Assembly: GCF_001677475.2 (NCBI RefSeq)
Contig: NZ_CP012497.1
DNA length: 64,000 nucleotides
Direction: 5' to 3' (one strand)
From: Escherichia coli
GTDB lineage: Bacteria; Pseudomonadota; Gammaproteobacteria; Enterobacterales; Enterobacteriaceae
Part shown: positions 46,013 to 63,114 of the stretch, one piece after another
Layout of the letters: each line of letters starts with the position of its first letter
How positions within the stretch are numbered: the stretch's first letter is position 1
Position numbers and translations under genes: made by a program
Notes under the pieces: generated by a model
Seen by the model: the letters and a program-made list of their open reading frames with translations, nothing else
Told to the model about the DNA's origin: nothing
Database searches by the model: none

Positions 46013-46173
46013 CAGCGGCGGCTTAGCAATACAACTGAAGGTAGCGCCCGGTACTCAGACTGTGCCGTCCATGGAATATTTGAAAAGGGATCCATCCGTA
46101 CCGGGCGTGTGATGATTCTGACTCAAGTCACTTGTCAGTTGTCAATCATTTAAGATTAAAAATAATATATTTA

Positions 46174-46734
46174 TTAGTGCATGATGTTTGCCATTTCATA
46201 GGCGTCAGCCAGCAACTCCATCTCTGACTTGTTCAGCAAGGTGAATTCTTTCTTGCCTCCAACCACACCATCGGCATGAACAGGGACCAGCCAGGGGTAT
46301 TTTTCTCTTACTTCAGCCGGAGCTGCATGCTGGTGGTGCCATCTACAAAGTGGCAATTGCTTTTTATGACAACCCGGCGCGGTACGACCGGCGATATGGT
46401 GCAGAGACACCTCATTAGATATTACTCCATGCATATAGCAGGCAATGCAGGGGAGAGCGCCAAGAGCATTGGCGATGCGCCGTTCCTCCGCCGTTGGTGT
46501 TCTCCCCTTCAAGCCACGAGATTTTATTTTTACCGCGCTTTTCCGCGTTTTGCTGGCTGGTGGGCGCTCTTTCTGTTTAGCGATACGGCGGTCGATAGTA
46601 TCTCGCATTTTCTGATATTGAGATTCTCGCCAGACCGGATCAGCCAACTTCTCCCGTTGCCGAGCGATCGCTCGTTCTCTGGCTGCCTTCTGCCACTTGC
46701 GGCACTGTTCAATTTTTTGTTCGATTGTTTTCAT
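46174..46734 (-). CDS. ref: Ref recombination enhancement function (HNH-type nuclease)
   Basis: 186 aa, MKTIEQKIEQCRKWQKAARERAIARQREKLADP...CRWHHQHAAP; recognised as P1 Ref. Confidence 0.85.
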   Translation of the reverse strand: MKTIEQKIEQCRKWQKAARERAIARQREKLADPVWRESQYQKMRDTIDRRIAKQKERPPASKTRKSAVKIKSRGLKGRTPTAEERRIANALGALPCIACYMHGVISNEVSLHHIAGRTAPGCHKKQLPLCRWHHQHAAPAEVREKYPWLVPVHADGVVGGKKEFTLLNKSEMELLADAYEMANIMH

Positions 46735-46820
46735 ATGGTCAAAAAAAAGGCGGCCTAATGGCCGCCTATGATGTCAAGGAGTTAAGTAATGGCTCGTCTT
46801 CGTAGTTGACAAAAACCGCG

Positions 46821-46849
46821 GCTCAATTATAGCAATCAATTAGAGCAAT
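46821..46849. promoter_or_regulatory. Tandem overlapping C1 operator-like sites upstream of ref
   Basis: Reverse complements ATTGCTCTAATTGATT and ATTGCTATAATTGAGC. Confidence 0.5.
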
Positions 46850-46981
46850 GATAGATATTTTGTTTATCGCGAATCACATTTTTTCACTTCAGTACCAGTG
46901 TGCTATACTCCTTCTTGATTGATTGGATGCGGAATACAAACCCGCTCTTTTGTGCAGCCTGGCTCCTTGCCAAGCTTTTTT

Positions 46982-47293
46982 TTATTTCATCATGGAAGCT
47001 GTTAACGCTTTGGACCTTGCTGAACTGATTGAAAGGACATTGTTAACCTTACCCAAGAGTTCGCCAAACTCAGACATCACTTTAGCAAAACCGCGCCGTG
47101 CTTCTTCCTCGGTGGCATTCATCACGAAATGTTCAGCACTACGCATACTTTTGACAGGAAACGCAACGGATATTGAGTCAATATCAGGCATTCTATCGCT
47201 CAGCTTTACAGTGACAATGACGGCTGGCGACTGAATATTAGTGCTTACAGACAGCACTACATATTTTCCGTCGATGTTGAAATCCTTTCTCAT
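46982..47293 (-). CDS. Hypothetical protein (cra position)
   Basis: 103-aa ORF between cre and ref. Confidence 0.35.
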   Translation of the reverse strand: MRKDFNIDGKYVVLSVSTNIQSPAVIVTVKLSDRMPDIDSISVAFPVKSMRSAEHFVMNATEEEARRGFAKVMSEFGELLGKVNNVLSISSARSKALTASMMK

Positions 47294-47310
47294 ATGTCAC
47301 CATAAATATC

Positions 47311-47326
47311 AAAGAATTAGAGCAAT
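47311..47326. promoter_or_regulatory. C1 operator-like site
   Basis: Reverse complement ATTGCTCTAATTCTTT. Confidence 0.45.
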
Positions 47327-47343
47327 CATTTACGCATTAATGG

Positions 47344-48375
47344 CTAATCGCCATCTTCCAGCAGGCGCACCATTGCCCCTGTTTCACTATCCAGGTTACG
47401 GATATAGTTCATGACAATATTTACGTTGGTCCAGCCACCAGCTTGCATGATCTCCGGTATTGAAACTCCGGCACGGGCCATATCTCGCGCGGCTCCGACA
47501 CGGGCACTGTGTCCAGACCAGGCCAGGTACCTCTGGCCAGAGTCATCCTTAGCCCCGTAAATCAATCGGTGAGTTGCTTCAAAAATCCCTTCCAGGGCGC
47601 GAGTTGATAGCTGGCTGGTGGGTGATGGCGAGGCAACACCATTTTTTCTGACCCGGCAAAACAAGTAGTTATTCGGATCATCAGCCACACCAGAGACAGA
47701 AATCCATCGCTCGACCAGTTTAGTTACCCCCAGGCTAAGTGCCTTCTCTACACCTGCGGTGCTAACCAGCGTTTTCGTTCTGCCAATATGGATTAACATT
47801 CTCCCACCGTCAGTACGTGAGATATCTTTAACCCTGATCCTGGCAATTTCGGCTATACGTAACAGGGTGTTATAAGCAATCCCCAGAAATGCCAGATTAC
47901 GTATATCCTGGCAGCGATCGCTATTTTCCATGAGTGAACGAACCTGGTCGAAATCAGTGCGTTCGAACGCTAGTGCCTGTTTTGCACGTTCACCGGCATC
48001 AACGTTTTCTTTTCGGATCCGCCGCATAACCAGTGAAACAGCATTGCTGTCACTTGGTCGCGGCAGCCCGGACCGACGATGAAGCATGTTTAGCTGGCCC
48101 AAATGTTGCTGGATAGTTTTTACTGCCAGACCGCGCGCCTGAAGATATAGAAGATAATCGCGAACATCTTCAGGTTCTGCGGGAAACCATTTCCGGTTAT
48201 TCAACTTGCACCATGCCGCCCATGACCGGCAAACGGACAGAAGCATTTTCCAGGTATGCTCAGAAAACGCCTGGCGATCCCTGAACATATCCATCAGGTT
48301 CTTGCGAACCTCATCACTCGTTGCATCGACCGGCAATGCAGGCAAATTTTGGTGAACGGTTAACGATTTAGTCAT
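47344..48375 (-). CDS. cre: Cre tyrosine recombinase
   Basis: 343 aa, ...LTVHQNLPALPVDATSDEVRKNLMDMFRDRQAFSEHTWKMLLSVCRSWAAWCKLNNRKWFPAEPEDVRDYLLYLQARGLAVKTIQQHLGQLNMLHRRSGLP...; matches Cre apart from N-terminal residues. Confidence 0.95.
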   Translation of the reverse strand: MTKSLTVHQNLPALPVDATSDEVRKNLMDMFRDRQAFSEHTWKMLLSVCRSWAAWCKLNNRKWFPAEPEDVRDYLLYLQARGLAVKTIQQHLGQLNMLHRRSGLPRPSDSNAVSLVMRRIRKENVDAGERAKQALAFERTDFDQVRSLMENSDRCQDIRNLAFLGIAYNTLLRIAEIARIRVKDISRTDGGRMLIHIGRTKTLVSTAGVEKALSLGVTKLVERWISVSGVADDPNNYLFCRVRKNGVASPSPTSQLSTRALEGIFEATHRLIYGAKDDSGQRYLAWSGHSARVGAARDMARAGVSIPEIMQAGGWTNVNIVMNYIRNLDSETGAMVRLLEDGD

Positions 48376-48767
48376 TTATTATGCGTAATTTTAACAGTTA
48401 AGCCTTGTTCATGAAGTATCTCATCAATAATTCGAATCACATCCCCAGGTAGATCATCGTTCTCGAAATATCTGTGATCGGGGATTTCTACAGTGATTGG
48501 AGTTGCTGCTTCATGCAAAATCCGAACAGTCTTTTTTTCTTCTTTGCATGCTGAATATTCAGCCTCTTCGATATCTTTCCAGCTTGCACCATCAAATTGC
48601 TGGTAAACCCGAGTGTACTGCATGCGGTTTCGCTTTACTTCTTCTGCTAACTCCCAAATTGCAACGGCCATAGCACGTTCATTTTCACTCGTTCCAGGGT
48701 TAGCAGCTTTTTGTTTTGCGTCCTTAAGTAAGGCGTTTACCTTGGCATCCGTCAGGCTATTAAACAT
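48372..48767 (-). CDS. Hypothetical protein upstream of cre
   Basis: 131 aa; its stop overlaps the cre start by 4 bp. Confidence 0.4.
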   Translation of the reverse strand: MFNSLTDAKVNALLKDAKQKAANPGTSENERAMAVAIWELAEEVKRNRMQYTRVYQQFDGASWKDIEEAEYSACKEEKKTVRILHEAATPITVEIPDHRYFENDDLPGDVIRIIDEILHEQGLTVKITHNK

Positions 48768-48786
48768 GCATCACCTCATGATCAAG

Positions 48787-49008
48787 TTAAATTATTGTTT
48801 TCAGCAGAGTGTACAGGATTGGATCTGCCTTTACCTGTTTATGGTTCTCGTCATAGAAACGCCAGCGACCGCGCGTGCGTTCTATTTTCTCTTCACCGCG
48901 AGATAATGACAGTTGGTAACTATCACGCTCAAACCCTTTTGCCCGCCAGTAACCACGGTTTTTCTCAAGCTCAAGATGAGTGGACACTTTAGCAGCTGAA
49001 TATCCCAT
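48787..49008 (-). CDS. Hypothetical small basic protein
   Basis: 73-aa ORF between loxP and cre. Confidence 0.25.
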   Translation of the reverse strand: MGYSAAKVSTHLELEKNRGYWRAKGFERDSYQLSLSRGEEKIERTRGRWRFYDENHKQVKADPILYTLLKTII

Positions 49009-49197
49009 TTTTCACCTCTGATTGATTGGTGGTGCTAAGTGCGCTACGCGAAATCTGGAGCACTAACACTGCCAACATTTCGCAGATTTTACGTAGCGCA
49101 ACCTTGATCAAATGATCAAGTGATCACTATTTGACCTGATAAGGTATTGAACTGTATGGATTTACAGGTAAATTGATCATGTTCAATAACCCTTAAG

Positions 49198-49231
49198 ATA
49201 ACTTCGTATAATGTATGCTATACGAAGTTAT
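49198..49231. other. loxP site
   Basis: Exact ATAACTTCGTATA-ATGTATGC-TATACGAAGTTAT (13-bp inverted repeats, 8-bp spacer). Confidence 0.95.
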
Positions 49232-49276
49232 TAGGTCTGAAGAGGAGTTTACGTCCAGCTGCGCATAAAAAACAAG

Positions 49277-49291
49277 AATTATTAGAGCAAT
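49277..49291. promoter_or_regulatory. C1 operator (minus orientation)
   Basis: Reverse complement ATTGCTCTAATAATT. Confidence 0.55.
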
Positions 49292-49357
49292 ATATTTTGA
49301 GAGATAAATCCCACTCCACCAGCCAAAAACTGGATTGTTTTTCATAGTTGTTTGACA

Positions 49358-49373
49358 ATTGCTCTAATAAATT
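49358..49373. promoter_or_regulatory. C1 operator (plus orientation), upstream of coi-c1
   Basis: ATTGCTCTAATAAATT, near-exact consensus. Confidence 0.6.
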
Positions 49374-49612
49374 ATAGTTTTGCCACCGTTTCGTAATACG
49401 ACTTTGGATTCACTATTTAATGTGTCTTCAGCGTTGTAGAGCGGCTCAGAAGGAAATGAGCAAACAGGGAAACCTTATACAACGGCATTACAGCTATGCA
49501 TTGCTCATCTTACACACAGCGCAATGTTGATAGATAACCCCAGCATGGAACATGGGTGAAACAGTAGGTCAGAGCTTCAGGCTCTGTGTTGTCAATACAG
49601 TGAGGCATAATT

Positions 49613-49822
49613 ATGGCTTTCATTCCACCAACCATCGACGATGTTAGACATTGCTCTAACGCTTTATCTGTAGACCCCGCCGAAACCGACGCTGCTCGCG
49701 CCATTGCTGAACACTACTCAAAGATATCCAATCAGGAGTACCGCATCACCCAAGACGACCTGGATGACCTCACTGACACAATCGAATATCTCATGGCAAC
49801 TAACCAGTTAGACTCACAATAA
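49613..49822 (+). CDS. coi: Coi-like (C1 inactivator), by size and position
   Basis: 69 aa immediately upstream of c1. Confidence 0.55.
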   Translation: MAFIPPTIDDVRHCSNALSVDPAETDAARAIAEHYSKISNQEYRITQDDLDDLTDTIEYLMATNQLDSQ

Positions 49823-49932
49823 ATGCACTAATAAATCTATTATTTTTGTTTGATCCCTCTATAATATAGGTCAGTAATGACCGGTTTTCTCAGCCGGGCG
49901 TTATTGACCATGTCAATTCTGGAGGAGGATCA

Positions 49933-50784
49933 ATGATAAATTATGTCTACGGCGAACAACTGTACCAGGAGTTCGTCAGCTTCAGGGATCTCTTTCTAAA
50001 AAAAGCTGTTGCACGCGCCCAACACGTTGATGCCGCCAGCGACGGTCGTCCTGTACGCCCGGTTGTCGTTCTACCGTTCAAAGAAACAGACAGCATTCAG
50101 GCTGAAATTGATAAATGGACTTTAATGGCGCGGGAACTGGAACAGTACCCAGACCTCAATATCCCAAAGACTATTTTATATCCTGTGCCTAACATCCTTC
50201 GCGGTGTACGTAAGGTTACGACTTATCAGACAGAAGCTGTGAACAGCGTCAACATGACCGCTGGCCGCATTATTCATCTGATTGATAAGGACATTCGCAT
50301 CCAAAAAAGCGCGGGGATCAATGAGCACAGTGCGAAATACATAGAGAACCTGGAAGCAACAAAAGAGCTAATGAAGCAGTACCCAGAGGATGAAAAATTC
50401 CGTATGCGCGTACACGGCTTTAGCGAAACAATGCTGCGCGTCCACTACATTTCCAGTAGCCCTAACTACAATGATGGTAAATCAGTTAGTTACCATGTGC
50501 CACTGTGTGGCGTGTTTATCTGCGATGAAACTCTCCGTGATGGAATTATCATCAACGGTGAATTCGAAAAAGCAAAATTTAGCCTTTATGACTCCATAGA
50601 ACCGATCATCTGCGACCGCTGGCCGCAAGCAAAAATATATCGCCTGGCAGATATTGAAAATGTAAAAAAACAAATTGCCATCACTCGCGAAGAGAAAAAG
50701 GTTAAGTCAGCCGCATCAGTTACGCGCAGCCGTAAAACTAAGAAGGGGCAGCCAGTAAACGACAACCCCGAAAGCGCGCAATAA
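49933..50784 (+). CDS. c1: C1 immunity repressor
   Basis: 283 aa, MINYVYGEQLYQEFVSFRDLFLKKAVARAQ...; matching operators throughout the window. Confidence 0.85.
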   Translation: MINYVYGEQLYQEFVSFRDLFLKKAVARAQHVDAASDGRPVRPVVVLPFKETDSIQAEIDKWTLMARELEQYPDLNIPKTILYPVPNILRGVRKVTTYQTEAVNSVNMTAGRIIHLIDKDIRIQKSAGINEHSAKYIENLEATKELMKQYPEDEKFRMRVHGFSETMLRVHYISSSPNYNDGKSVSYHVPLCGVFICDETLRDGIIINGEFEKAKFSLYDSIEPIICDRWPQAKIYRLADIENVKKQIAITREEKKVKSAASVTRSRKTKKGQPVNDNPESAQ

Positions 50785-50816
50785 ATTATGCCCGGCATCA
50801 ACCGGGCATTCTTCCA

Positions 50817-51932
50817 TTATTCAGCCGCCACCGGTTTTAACAAGCCAGCATCGAGCAGTTTACGCGTCAACCACTGTTGGCCTTTCCCCGTTAATTGAGG
50901 CGTCAGCCGTATCTGATAGCCATCTTCATCATCCAGCACCACTTCTCTCACTGTGAAATATCCGGCGTTTATGTACTGCTGAAACGGTACATTTTTACGT
51001 CCGCCGGACGCAATCAGGATGCCGTTCTCCCGTAACCAGGCAAACAGCGCATTTTGCTTAAGTCCAACAACCTTTGCAAAATTCCCAATCAGGATCCCCT
51101 TAGCCACTGATACCCGGTCGGCAAAATCGACTTTAGGGGCTGCGGCCACCAGCTGCTGATTTAGCTGGTGGGTTTTCTGTTCCAGAAGTTGCTTTTGTTC
51201 AGCCAGCTCGGCAGCCAGGCGCAGAGCTTCTGGAAGCGTCTGGGGGATTGCGATCGGTTGCTGTTCTTTTTGTCGGAAGTAGCTGTCTTCCAGTTTTTCA
51301 AAGAATGCCCATGCCTGATCTGTTTCGAGCATTTTTGCGTGACGGGCAGCTCCTCGTTCCGTCCAGAGGATGAGTGAGCGGGCTTTAGGAGAGATGGGAT
51401 TTTGTGAGTTACTTAAAGTCACCCGCAAATTGTTCAAATCATCTCCAATAACTTTATAGAAATGCTTGCCTTCACAAAAACGTTCAGCATTACGGGAAAA
51501 GTTCTTCTTGATGTTATCCGCATCGGTCCCATACCCCTTAGCAAGGATCTTGGTTGTCACTACACGCACTCCCAGCCATTCCAGAACGGGAATTTCATCA
51601 GACTGATTCTGAACAACCACCAGCTCTGACTCCTGAACTGAAGGTGCATGAACTTTTTCTGATTTAACGTTAGTTGCTTTCATTCTGTGTGCCTCCTTGC
51701 GTGTTTCGGCTGCGACGGTTGCGTAATTCAGATGCCCCTGTTCGAGCAGGTATTCGCGGATATCAGACAGCAGGATGCGGTGAACCGCGTTCTTGTCCTT
51801 TCTCCGGTAAAGTTGTTTGGTGATCATGAAGTAGTTGGCTATAACGCCTGGTATATCCCTGGTACTGATACAAGCAGTGTGCTGTTCAATTGCCTCGATC
51901 ATCTCTTCACGGGTGACTAATGACGTTCTCAT
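50817..51932 (-). CDS. ant1: Antirepressor Ant1-like (KilA-C / antirepressor C-terminal domain)
   Basis: 371 aa from MRTSLVTREEM...; its start overlaps the icd stop (ATGA); C-terminal DFADRVSVAKGILIGNFAKVVGLKQNALFAWLRENGIL. Confidence 0.6.
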   Translation of the reverse strand: MRTSLVTREEMIEAIEQHTACISTRDIPGVIANYFMITKQLYRRKDKNAVHRILLSDIREYLLEQGHLNYATVAAETRKEAHRMKATNVKSEKVHAPSVQESELVVVQNQSDEIPVLEWLGVRVVTTKILAKGYGTDADNIKKNFSRNAERFCEGKHFYKVIGDDLNNLRVTLSNSQNPISPKARSLILWTERGAARHAKMLETDQAWAFFEKLEDSYFRQKEQQPIAIPQTLPEALRLAAELAEQKQLLEQKTHQLNQQLVAAAPKVDFADRVSVAKGILIGNFAKVVGLKQNALFAWLRENGILIASGGRKNVPFQQYINAGYFTVREVVLDDEDGYQIRLTPQLTGKGQQWLTRKLLDAGLLKPVAAE

Positions 51933-52150
51933 AGTCCCTCCTGAGCACAAGCGTTTACAGGGGGGCACCAGTAACTGAGAGAATTGCGCAAATCGGTAGA
52001 AAAACGGGCGGAGAAAATACAGGGAGCATCCGGAAGCTGAGAACGTGCCTCATCTTCTGTTGGTGCGATAACGAAGTGATAGTGACGTTTCTGGCAGGAG
52101 TAAAAGCGCCAGATGAATTCAGGGTGAGCTGGGGTAGGGGTAGTAGCCAT
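51929..52150 (-). CDS. icd: Icd-like small protein
   Basis: 73 aa (MATTPTPAHPEFIWRFY...), strong SD AAGGAGG 8 nt upstream; translationally coupled to ant. Confidence 0.55.
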   Translation of the reverse strand: MATTPTPAHPEFIWRFYSCQKRHYHFVIAPTEDEARSQLPDAPCIFSARFSTDLRNSLSYWCPPVNACAQEGL

Positions 52151-61479: not shown

Positions 61480-61551
61480 ATGCCCTCCTCATTGGACGAA
61501 AAAAATGCTGGTGGGCGCACTCCACCAGCATTAAAAGTGACACTGTAACTA

Positions 61552-63048: not shown

Positions 63049-63065
63049 ATTGCTCTAATAAAAAA
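63049..63065. promoter_or_regulatory. C1 operator (plus orientation)
   Basis: ATTGCTCTAATAAAAAA. Confidence 0.5.
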
Positions 63066-63099
63066 CGTGATGAGTGTACATCACGTTTTAAAAATATGG

Positions 63100-63114
63100 A
63101 ATTATTAGAGCAAT
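63100..63114. promoter_or_regulatory. C1 operator (minus orientation)
   Basis: Reverse complement ATTGCTCTAATAATT. Confidence 0.5.

Follow-up and report, generated by a model that had tools for sequence, protein, structure and literature searches.

A probable intrinsic terminator between the C1-controlled promoter and the start codon of ref in a P1-like phage-plasmid

In a P1-like phage-plasmid, a hairpin followed by a run of eight U lies in the 5' leader of the mRNA for the nuclease Ref, immediately upstream of the start codon. We consider it probable, on the sequence and its relatives, that this element is a genuine intrinsic (Rho-independent) terminator and that it acts as an attenuator of ref. 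The leader-terminator reading is preferred because in three lineages the element keeps one and the same place, behind a C1-operated promoter and ahead of the start codon. As far as its title tells, the paper of Windle, Laufer and Hays (1988, J Bacteriol 170:4881) concerns attenuator control of P1 ref; such control was thus already proposed for P1 and is re-discovered here in a P1 variant. The present analysis adds signs of structural selection on the hairpin in two Ref lineages, the finding that the hairpin outlives ref in some plasmids, the restriction of the start without a Shine-Dalgarno (SD) sequence to the P1 lineage, and a single operator instead of two.

The ref locus and the hairpin in its leader

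The window, by which we mean the whole 64-kb stretch of DNA that was analysed, is by its sequence a P1-like phage-plasmid. Over region 46100-47400 the identity was 98.5% to bacteriophage P1 (AF234172, NC_005856) and 92-96% to P7, SJ46, RCS47 and others, and about 700 P1-like plasmids likewise matched this region. The identity to P1 was 97.7% over the 441 bp spanning the leader, compared with 98.5% over 1.3 kb. The gene order cre, c8, ref, mat is common to P1 and the window. On the minus strand, cre occupies 47344-48375 and c8 46982-47293, as given by the ORF list and the P1 annotation, and ref occupies 46174-46734 with its ATG at 46734-46732, as given by the ORF list and Pfam. The 186-aa ref product carries the Pfam domain PF16786 (RecA_dep_nuc) at residues 80-182 (E = 2.3e-51), which places it in the Ref family of RecA-dependent HNH nucleases. 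Ref is a RecA-guided nuclease that makes lysogens sensitive to ciprofloxacin and prevents the establishment of lysogeny. Ronayne et al. (2016, PMC4713147) report that the inactivation of C1 raised ref mRNA 73-fold and that Ref reduced lysogenisation 40-fold. In the same report, the level of ref mRNA was lower and its timing later than for other C1-controlled genes, and H-NS bound the ref 5' region at the motif CGATAAA, which is found in the window at 46863-46869 (minus strand).

Read on the minus strand, the end of the leader is CATCAT-A-GGCGGCC-ATTA-GGCCGCC-TTTTTTTT-GACCAT-ATG. The putative terminator stem-loop, (A)GGCGGCC-AUUA-GGCCGCC, is located at 46749-46767 and was delimited by fold, conservation and shuffles. 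An optional eighth pair joins A46767 to U46748, so that the full structure (46767-46748, A-GGCGGCC-ATTA-GGCCGCC-T) closes a 4-nt loop with 8 pairs, all but one of which are G-C. The U8 tract (46741-46748) adjoins the stem on the ref coding strand, whereas the opposite strand has no T-run, and it occupies positions -14 to -7, the usual place of an SD. The U-run is separated from the AUG by the 6-nt spacer GACCAU (46735-46740), which by its sequence and by the anti-SD duplex holds no SD. The preliminary description had placed a hairpin with an 8-nt U-run 6 nt upstream of the ref ATG, and both are present as described: the hairpin alone has a folding energy of -16.6 kcal/mol, and a strict terminator scan, which asked for a perfect stem of 7 or more pairs including 5 or more G-C and for a T-run of 7 or more directly next to the stem, gave no match in any of 200 dinucleotide shuffles. 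In the real 64-kb window, the strict scan matched at two places, the ref leader and 61506-61530. A terminator consensus scan also called the hairpin, with the same 8 pairs, 7 G-C pairs and 4-nt loop. The hairpin was the dominant structure of the 98-nt leader, which folded with z = -2.9 against shuffles. The element thus combines a G+C-rich stem with a short loop, an abutting U-tract and a structure conserved among relatives, as is expected of an intrinsic terminator.

The other top-grade intrinsic terminator of the 64-kb window, at 61506-61530 on the minus strand, has a 9-bp stem, a 7-nt loop and T7. Elsewhere in the window, the gene order of 48372-52000 is unlike that of the P1 reference. An extra 131-aa ORF (48372-48767) overlaps the start of cre, and a 283-aa ORF on the plus strand (49933-50784), without a Pfam match, converges on ant (50817-51968, minus strand). 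Its 283 aa equal the length of C1. The ant gene has a terminator-like hairpin of its own, ATGCCCGG-TTGA-TGCCGGGCAT.

Promoters and the C1 operator upstream of the hairpin

At ref, the P1 GenBank record AF234172 (Lobocka et al.) annotates a 'monovalent C1 controlled operator Oref' overlapping the promoter P2ref, together with a predicted promoter P1ref, and it has no terminator there. Transferred to the window by alignment, the -35 hexamer of P2ref is CTATCA (46849-46854) and its -10 is TATAAT (46826-46831), both on the minus strand. The spacer of 17 bp is filled by Oref, ATTGCTCTAATTGATTG (site 1, 46833-46849, minus strand). The C1 operator consensus is the 17-bp asymmetric site ATTGCTCTAATAAATTT, and the window holds 11 sites within 3 mismatches of it, compared with 0.31 expected by chance. 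Site 1 agrees with this consensus at 14 of 17 positions and is a candidate operator by its sequence and the P1 annotation.

The preliminary description had proposed tandem C1 operators here and had suggested a comparison with the P1 ref promoter and operator. The comparison bears out the first site, which is where Oref is annotated in P1, overlapping P2ref; the second site does not stand. Site 2, ATTGCTATAATTGAGCC (46820-46836, minus strand), contains the -10 of P2ref, matches the consensus at only 11 of 17 positions, and falls beside an operator annotated as monovalent. It carries an A where all 11 operator matches of the window have a C. In all 87 P1-type relatives it has 5-7 mismatches to the C1 consensus, reading ATTGTT in 19 of them, and it is absent from a second Ref lineage, which keeps one operator and the TATAAT. 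Site 2 starts 13 bp downstream of site 1 as a near-copy of the left 13 bp of the operator. It is therefore best read, as far as sequence goes, as a -10 box inside a short 13-bp tandem duplication of the operator's left half, which would leave one credible C1 operator at ref, not two. With the hairpin 53-82 nt and the ATG 86-115 nt downstream of them, the sites are roughly where the preliminary description had put them.

Two further operator-like sequences were seen near ref. A counterpart of the P1 operator Omat overlaps the ref stop codon (46160-46182, ATGCACTAATAAATAT); the 3-mismatch scan missed it because it has 4 mismatches to the consensus. The second lineage likewise has an operator-like site at the ref 3' end (L088, position 2048). 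On the other side, 22 nt upstream of the c8 ATG, the minus strand carries a perfect C1-operator core, ATTGCTCTAAT, at 47316-47326, where the full 17-mer matches at 13 of 17 positions. At the same place between cre and c8, P1 reads ATTGCTATAAT and has no annotated operator.

The predicted promoter P1ref underlies a different reading, in which the terminator stops transcripts from cre, c8 and P2ref while ref is expressed from P1ref. Transcripts from P1ref would start inside the 5' arm, form no hairpin and escape termination. In the P1 annotation, P1ref (-35 TTGCCA, 16 bp, -10 CATCAT) ends directly at the hairpin, and P1-type leaders keep either CATCAT or AATCAT. We nevertheless regard this reading as quite unlikely. 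P1ref is labelled 'predicted' in P1, and the corresponding stretch of the window (46768-46795, minus strand, with the -10 CATCAT at 46768-46773 and the -35 at 46790-46795) has, through a 1-nt deletion and a substitution, the -35 GAGCCA (3 of 6) instead of TTGCCA and was not called by the promoter scan. In addition, no comparable -10 accompanies the hairpin in the second Ref lineage. Finally, the 73-fold dependence on C1 suggests that ref is transcribed mainly from P2ref, which carries the operator and precedes the hairpin.

Under the leader-terminator reading, the same arrangement argues that the hairpin would also insulate ref from read-through out of cre and c8. This role would matter because the hairpin that follows c8 has no U-tract on that strand.

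Read on the plus strand, the c8-ref intergenic region (46881-46984) resembles a small transcription unit, and 50 unique P1-like sequences show almost no variation in it. It begins with a promoter-like TTTTCA-17-(TG)TATACT (46881-46909) and continues with the hairpin GCGGAAUACAAACCCGC and then with AGCCUGG-CUCCUUG-CCAGGCU and U8. The AGCCUGG/CCAGGCU hairpin is perfect in P1, while in the window it has a C.A mismatch on the plus strand that is G.U-paired on the minus strand. This unit is unannotated in P1 and had no Rfam match.

Conservation of the leader in P1-type loci and in other Ref lineages

We compared 87 P1-type loci, namely those of P1, the window, four plasmids and 81 viral contigs that a scan for the pattern of the operator/-10 core had brought up. 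The hairpin stem was kept in 83 of the 87. Its 14 stem positions were invariant save for one C-to-U change, which keeps a G.U pair, and one deletion of a basal C, and three of the four loop positions varied (ATTA, ATCA, GAAA, GCAA, TAAA). The T-run measured 7-9 in ref-bearing loci and 6 in loci without ref. The 5' third of the leaders was highly variable. In P1 itself, the operator, the -10, the hairpin stem and loop, the U8 and the gene order are the same as in the window. The two differ in that the window has an A instead of a T 5' of the stem, which adds the eighth pair, and a 6-nt spacer, GACCAT, where that of P1 is the 5-nt GCCAT.

Twelve P1-type loci, such as those of E. albertii pEA18_2 and E. 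coli pHYEC7-mcr1, lack ref but keep cre, c8, the operator, the leader, the hairpin and T6; ref was not detectable in their records. They are homologous to the window up to the last T of the T-run and no further, and the convergent antirepressor gene ant stops 2 nt beyond it, with the ant-icd pair abutting (L002 1700-1760, L003 1700-1762, and 10 viral contigs that include L026, L011 and L076). All 12 share a single common junction, TTTTTTAATCATTCAGCC. A second copy of the ref-leader hairpin, which could have served as a recombination substrate for this junction, was not found in the 64-kb window. Since the hairpin survives in these 12 loci, its persistence does not need ref, and it may now also form the 3' end of ant. 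One record looked like the converse case, ref without the leader (L087; OQ595196, Salmonella phage SJ1), but it was set aside since it consists of abutted coding sequences with no intergenic DNA. These include cre, c8, a truncated ref and mat, in that order. The record has the look of an artefact that arose in assembly or deposition, and regulatory regions cannot be compared with it.

The survival of the hairpin without ref could also mean that the segment from P2ref to the terminator is a stand-alone, C1-controlled sRNA of about 75-80 nt, for instance an Hfq-binding one, with ref as a by-product of read-through. A hairpin with a U-tail is the typical 3' end of Hfq-binding sRNAs. In the 12 ref-less loci, the operator, -10, leader, hairpin and U6 are intact in several leader backgrounds. 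Within the leader, the 15-nt core GUCAACUACGAAGAC (46796-46810, minus strand) stands out by its invariance in P1-type leaders while the flanks vary: among 25 unique leaders, GTCAACTACGAAGAC was invariant save for one G-to-C change (L058), and its TGTCAAC recurs in the second Ref lineage. If such an sRNA existed, it would have a function of its own during P1 induction, and this would explain the survival of the element in phage-plasmids without ref. We consider this very unlikely. No site complementary to the core was found in the 64-kb window, even when up to 3 mismatches in 15 nt were allowed. The leader matched no Rfam family, the three sub-threshold matches being hairpin-driven chance matches, and its 5' hairpin is structurally unconserved. 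The retention in ref-less loci could equally stem from one rearrangement that left a shared junction, or from a new use of the hairpin in ending the ant transcript.

Ref homologues at 65-68% amino acid identity were seen in Klebsiella, in Salmonella and on viral contigs (L088, L089, L094-L097), where they follow other upstream genes. This second lineage has the same architecture: an operator, ATTGCTCTAATAATTAT, then G-TATAAT, a leader with TGTCAAC, a hairpin, U5-8, 10-13 nt and an ATG or GTG. The hairpin there reads GACGGTC-TTCG/TACG-GACCGTC. When the 11 distinct hairpins were aligned in register, 77 of 77 cells paired, and slid registers were far worse. Two of the seven stem pairs showed compensatory change, from G-C to A-U and from C-G to U-A, with U.G intermediates. 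This covariation is the pattern expected of a conserved helix, and it amounts to essentially one between-lineage event and two G.U variants. A Pantoea homologue (61% identity) likewise has an operator and then the hairpin GCCGCC-TCCG-GGCGGC-U7, about 95 nt before its ATG. The Ref homologues at 47-52% identity (L091-L093) have no leader hairpin and moderate SDs, and we set them aside as uninformative about the P1 arrangement.

Start codon, proposed course of expression and comparison with known systems

The ATG at 46734 is, by comparison of sequences, the true start of ref. From this codon onward, distant homologues share the N-terminus M-K/E-L/T-T-E-Q-Q-I, with an exchange of ATG and GTG. We considered an N-terminal extension of Ref through the hairpin, given that the P1 frame is open up to a TTG 26 codons upstream. 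Such an in-frame extension is excluded because the length of the leader varies by indels among relatives (leaders differ by 1 nt in either direction and T-runs measure 7-9); in the window, moreover, a TGA closes the frame 13 codons upstream. A leader peptide of 12 codons from the TTG at 46812 was also rejected, as its start is lost in E. albertii-type leaders, it has no SD, and the leader length varies out of frame. As the preliminary description had noted, ref has no SD: the best anti-SD duplex in -20 to -3 has +0.7 kcal/mol, compared with a median of -4.3 kcal/mol for the 59 long ORFs of the window. The ref mRNA from -8 to +40 is essentially unstructured (-0.2 kcal/mol). In the 71 ref-bearing relatives, the spacer between the U-run and the ATG is GCCAT, GACCAT or ACCTT and never SD-like, but in the second lineage GGAG or GGGA follows the U-run ahead of the start codon, so that a start wholly without an SD is peculiar to the P1 lineage.

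These features raise the question of whether the hairpin and U8 serve translation instead, by recruiting ribosomes through S1 or by stabilising read-through mRNA, in place of an SD and after the model of the E. coli rnd leader. Ribosomal protein S1 binds to U-rich tracts. The U8 of ref lies exactly at the SD position (-14 to -7), just 5' of a start without anti-SD pairing and in front of an unstructured region, as in enhancers of the rnd type, and U7-9 with an SD-less spacer of 5-6 nt is present in all 71 ref-bearing P1-type relatives. The E. coli rnd mRNA has a terminator-like hairpin followed by eight U, and it also has an SD. For rnd (RNase D), Zhang and Deutscher (1992, PNAS 89:2605) are cited in PMC7769764 for an A/U-rich enhancer with a weak start, the U-rich stretch upstream of that start being needed for translation. 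As an explanation of the element, however, this is unlikely. It accounts for the U-run and not for the selection on the GC-rich stem; the hairpin and U6 persist in the 12 loci without ref, with the convergent ant next to them; the second lineage has GGAG or GGGA between the U-run and the start; and the Pantoea hairpin is about 95 nt from its ATG. A role in translation is compatible with termination and does not replace it. It is possible, by analogy, that the U8 helps S1-dependent 30S binding on read-through mRNA as a secondary role of the terminator.

On the leader-terminator reading, ref expression would proceed as follows. In the lysogen, C1 at Oref would block initiation at P2ref. After the loss of C1, RNA polymerase would make a leader of about 75-80 nt and meet the terminator 6 nt before the AUG. 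The majority of P2ref transcripts would end there, as would read-through from cre and c8. The read-through minority would present an AUG without an SD, with the U8 and the unstructured, A-rich start region as its sole ribosome-recruiting features. Thus ref would be damped at three levels, namely initiation (by C1, plus H-NS), elongation (by the attenuator) and translation (by the SD-less start), because the nuclease harms the host and the establishment of lysogeny. The earlier suggestion of tight, possibly attenuated, C1-dependent control gains support from the P1 annotation, the 73-fold effect of C1 and the stem covariation.

Several points weigh against an attenuator. The ref mRNA still accumulates 73-fold upon induction, so the block is not absolute. 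Conversely, such a stem with U8 is expected to terminate very efficiently, which would leave little read-through for ref expression. The P1 record, too, has no terminator here and instead has the predicted P1ref with its -10 abutting the hairpin. A literature search found no Term-seq, 3' mapping or transcription start site study of P1, and a P1vir RNA-seq paper does not mention ref. From the sequence we infer termination, its efficiency and a read-through that is passive rather than regulated. The 1988 title of Windle et al. hints at a trans-acting antiterminator, which may also operate here. The consensus fold contained the terminator and a poorly conserved 5' hairpin, and no antiterminator helix. 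The sole candidate for an RNA antiterminator, a lone 5-bp GCCGC/GCGGC match to the extreme 5' end, was rejected as unconserved (GUUGUGG in variants). Given that the leader has neither a conserved ORF nor an antiterminator helix with the 5' arm, the most economical model would be an attenuator that works constitutively and lets a fixed minority of transcripts through.

The tightness of Ref repression bears on phage-antibiotic synergy and on the use of Ref as a programmable nuclease. The layered control by the C1 operator, H-NS, the leader terminator and the SD-less start would exemplify how a toxic phage gene is damped.

Compared with known systems, ref differs from the trp, his and pyrBI attenuators and from riboswitches, which rely either on a leader peptide or on an alternative fold for antitermination; no sign of one or the other was detected at ref. 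The likeness to rnd lies in the U-rich tract before a weak start, with the difference that the start cited for rnd is UUG whereas ref has an AUG without an SD; moreover, the ref hairpin outlasts its gene, which a pure translation element as in rnd would not. Within the window, the other C1 operators (for example those at 49275-49374, 60957 and 63049-63114) follow the same 17-bp asymmetric consensus overlapping a sigma-70 promoter. Unlike Oref, they have no top-grade terminator in the leader, as the terminator at 61506-61530 is about 1.5 kb from the nearest upstream operator. The arrangement at ref resembles the constitutive leader terminators of bacterial and phage 5' UTRs that have no sensing domain, with a strong terminator between a regulated promoter and the start codon, so that expression would depend on the fraction of transcripts that read through.
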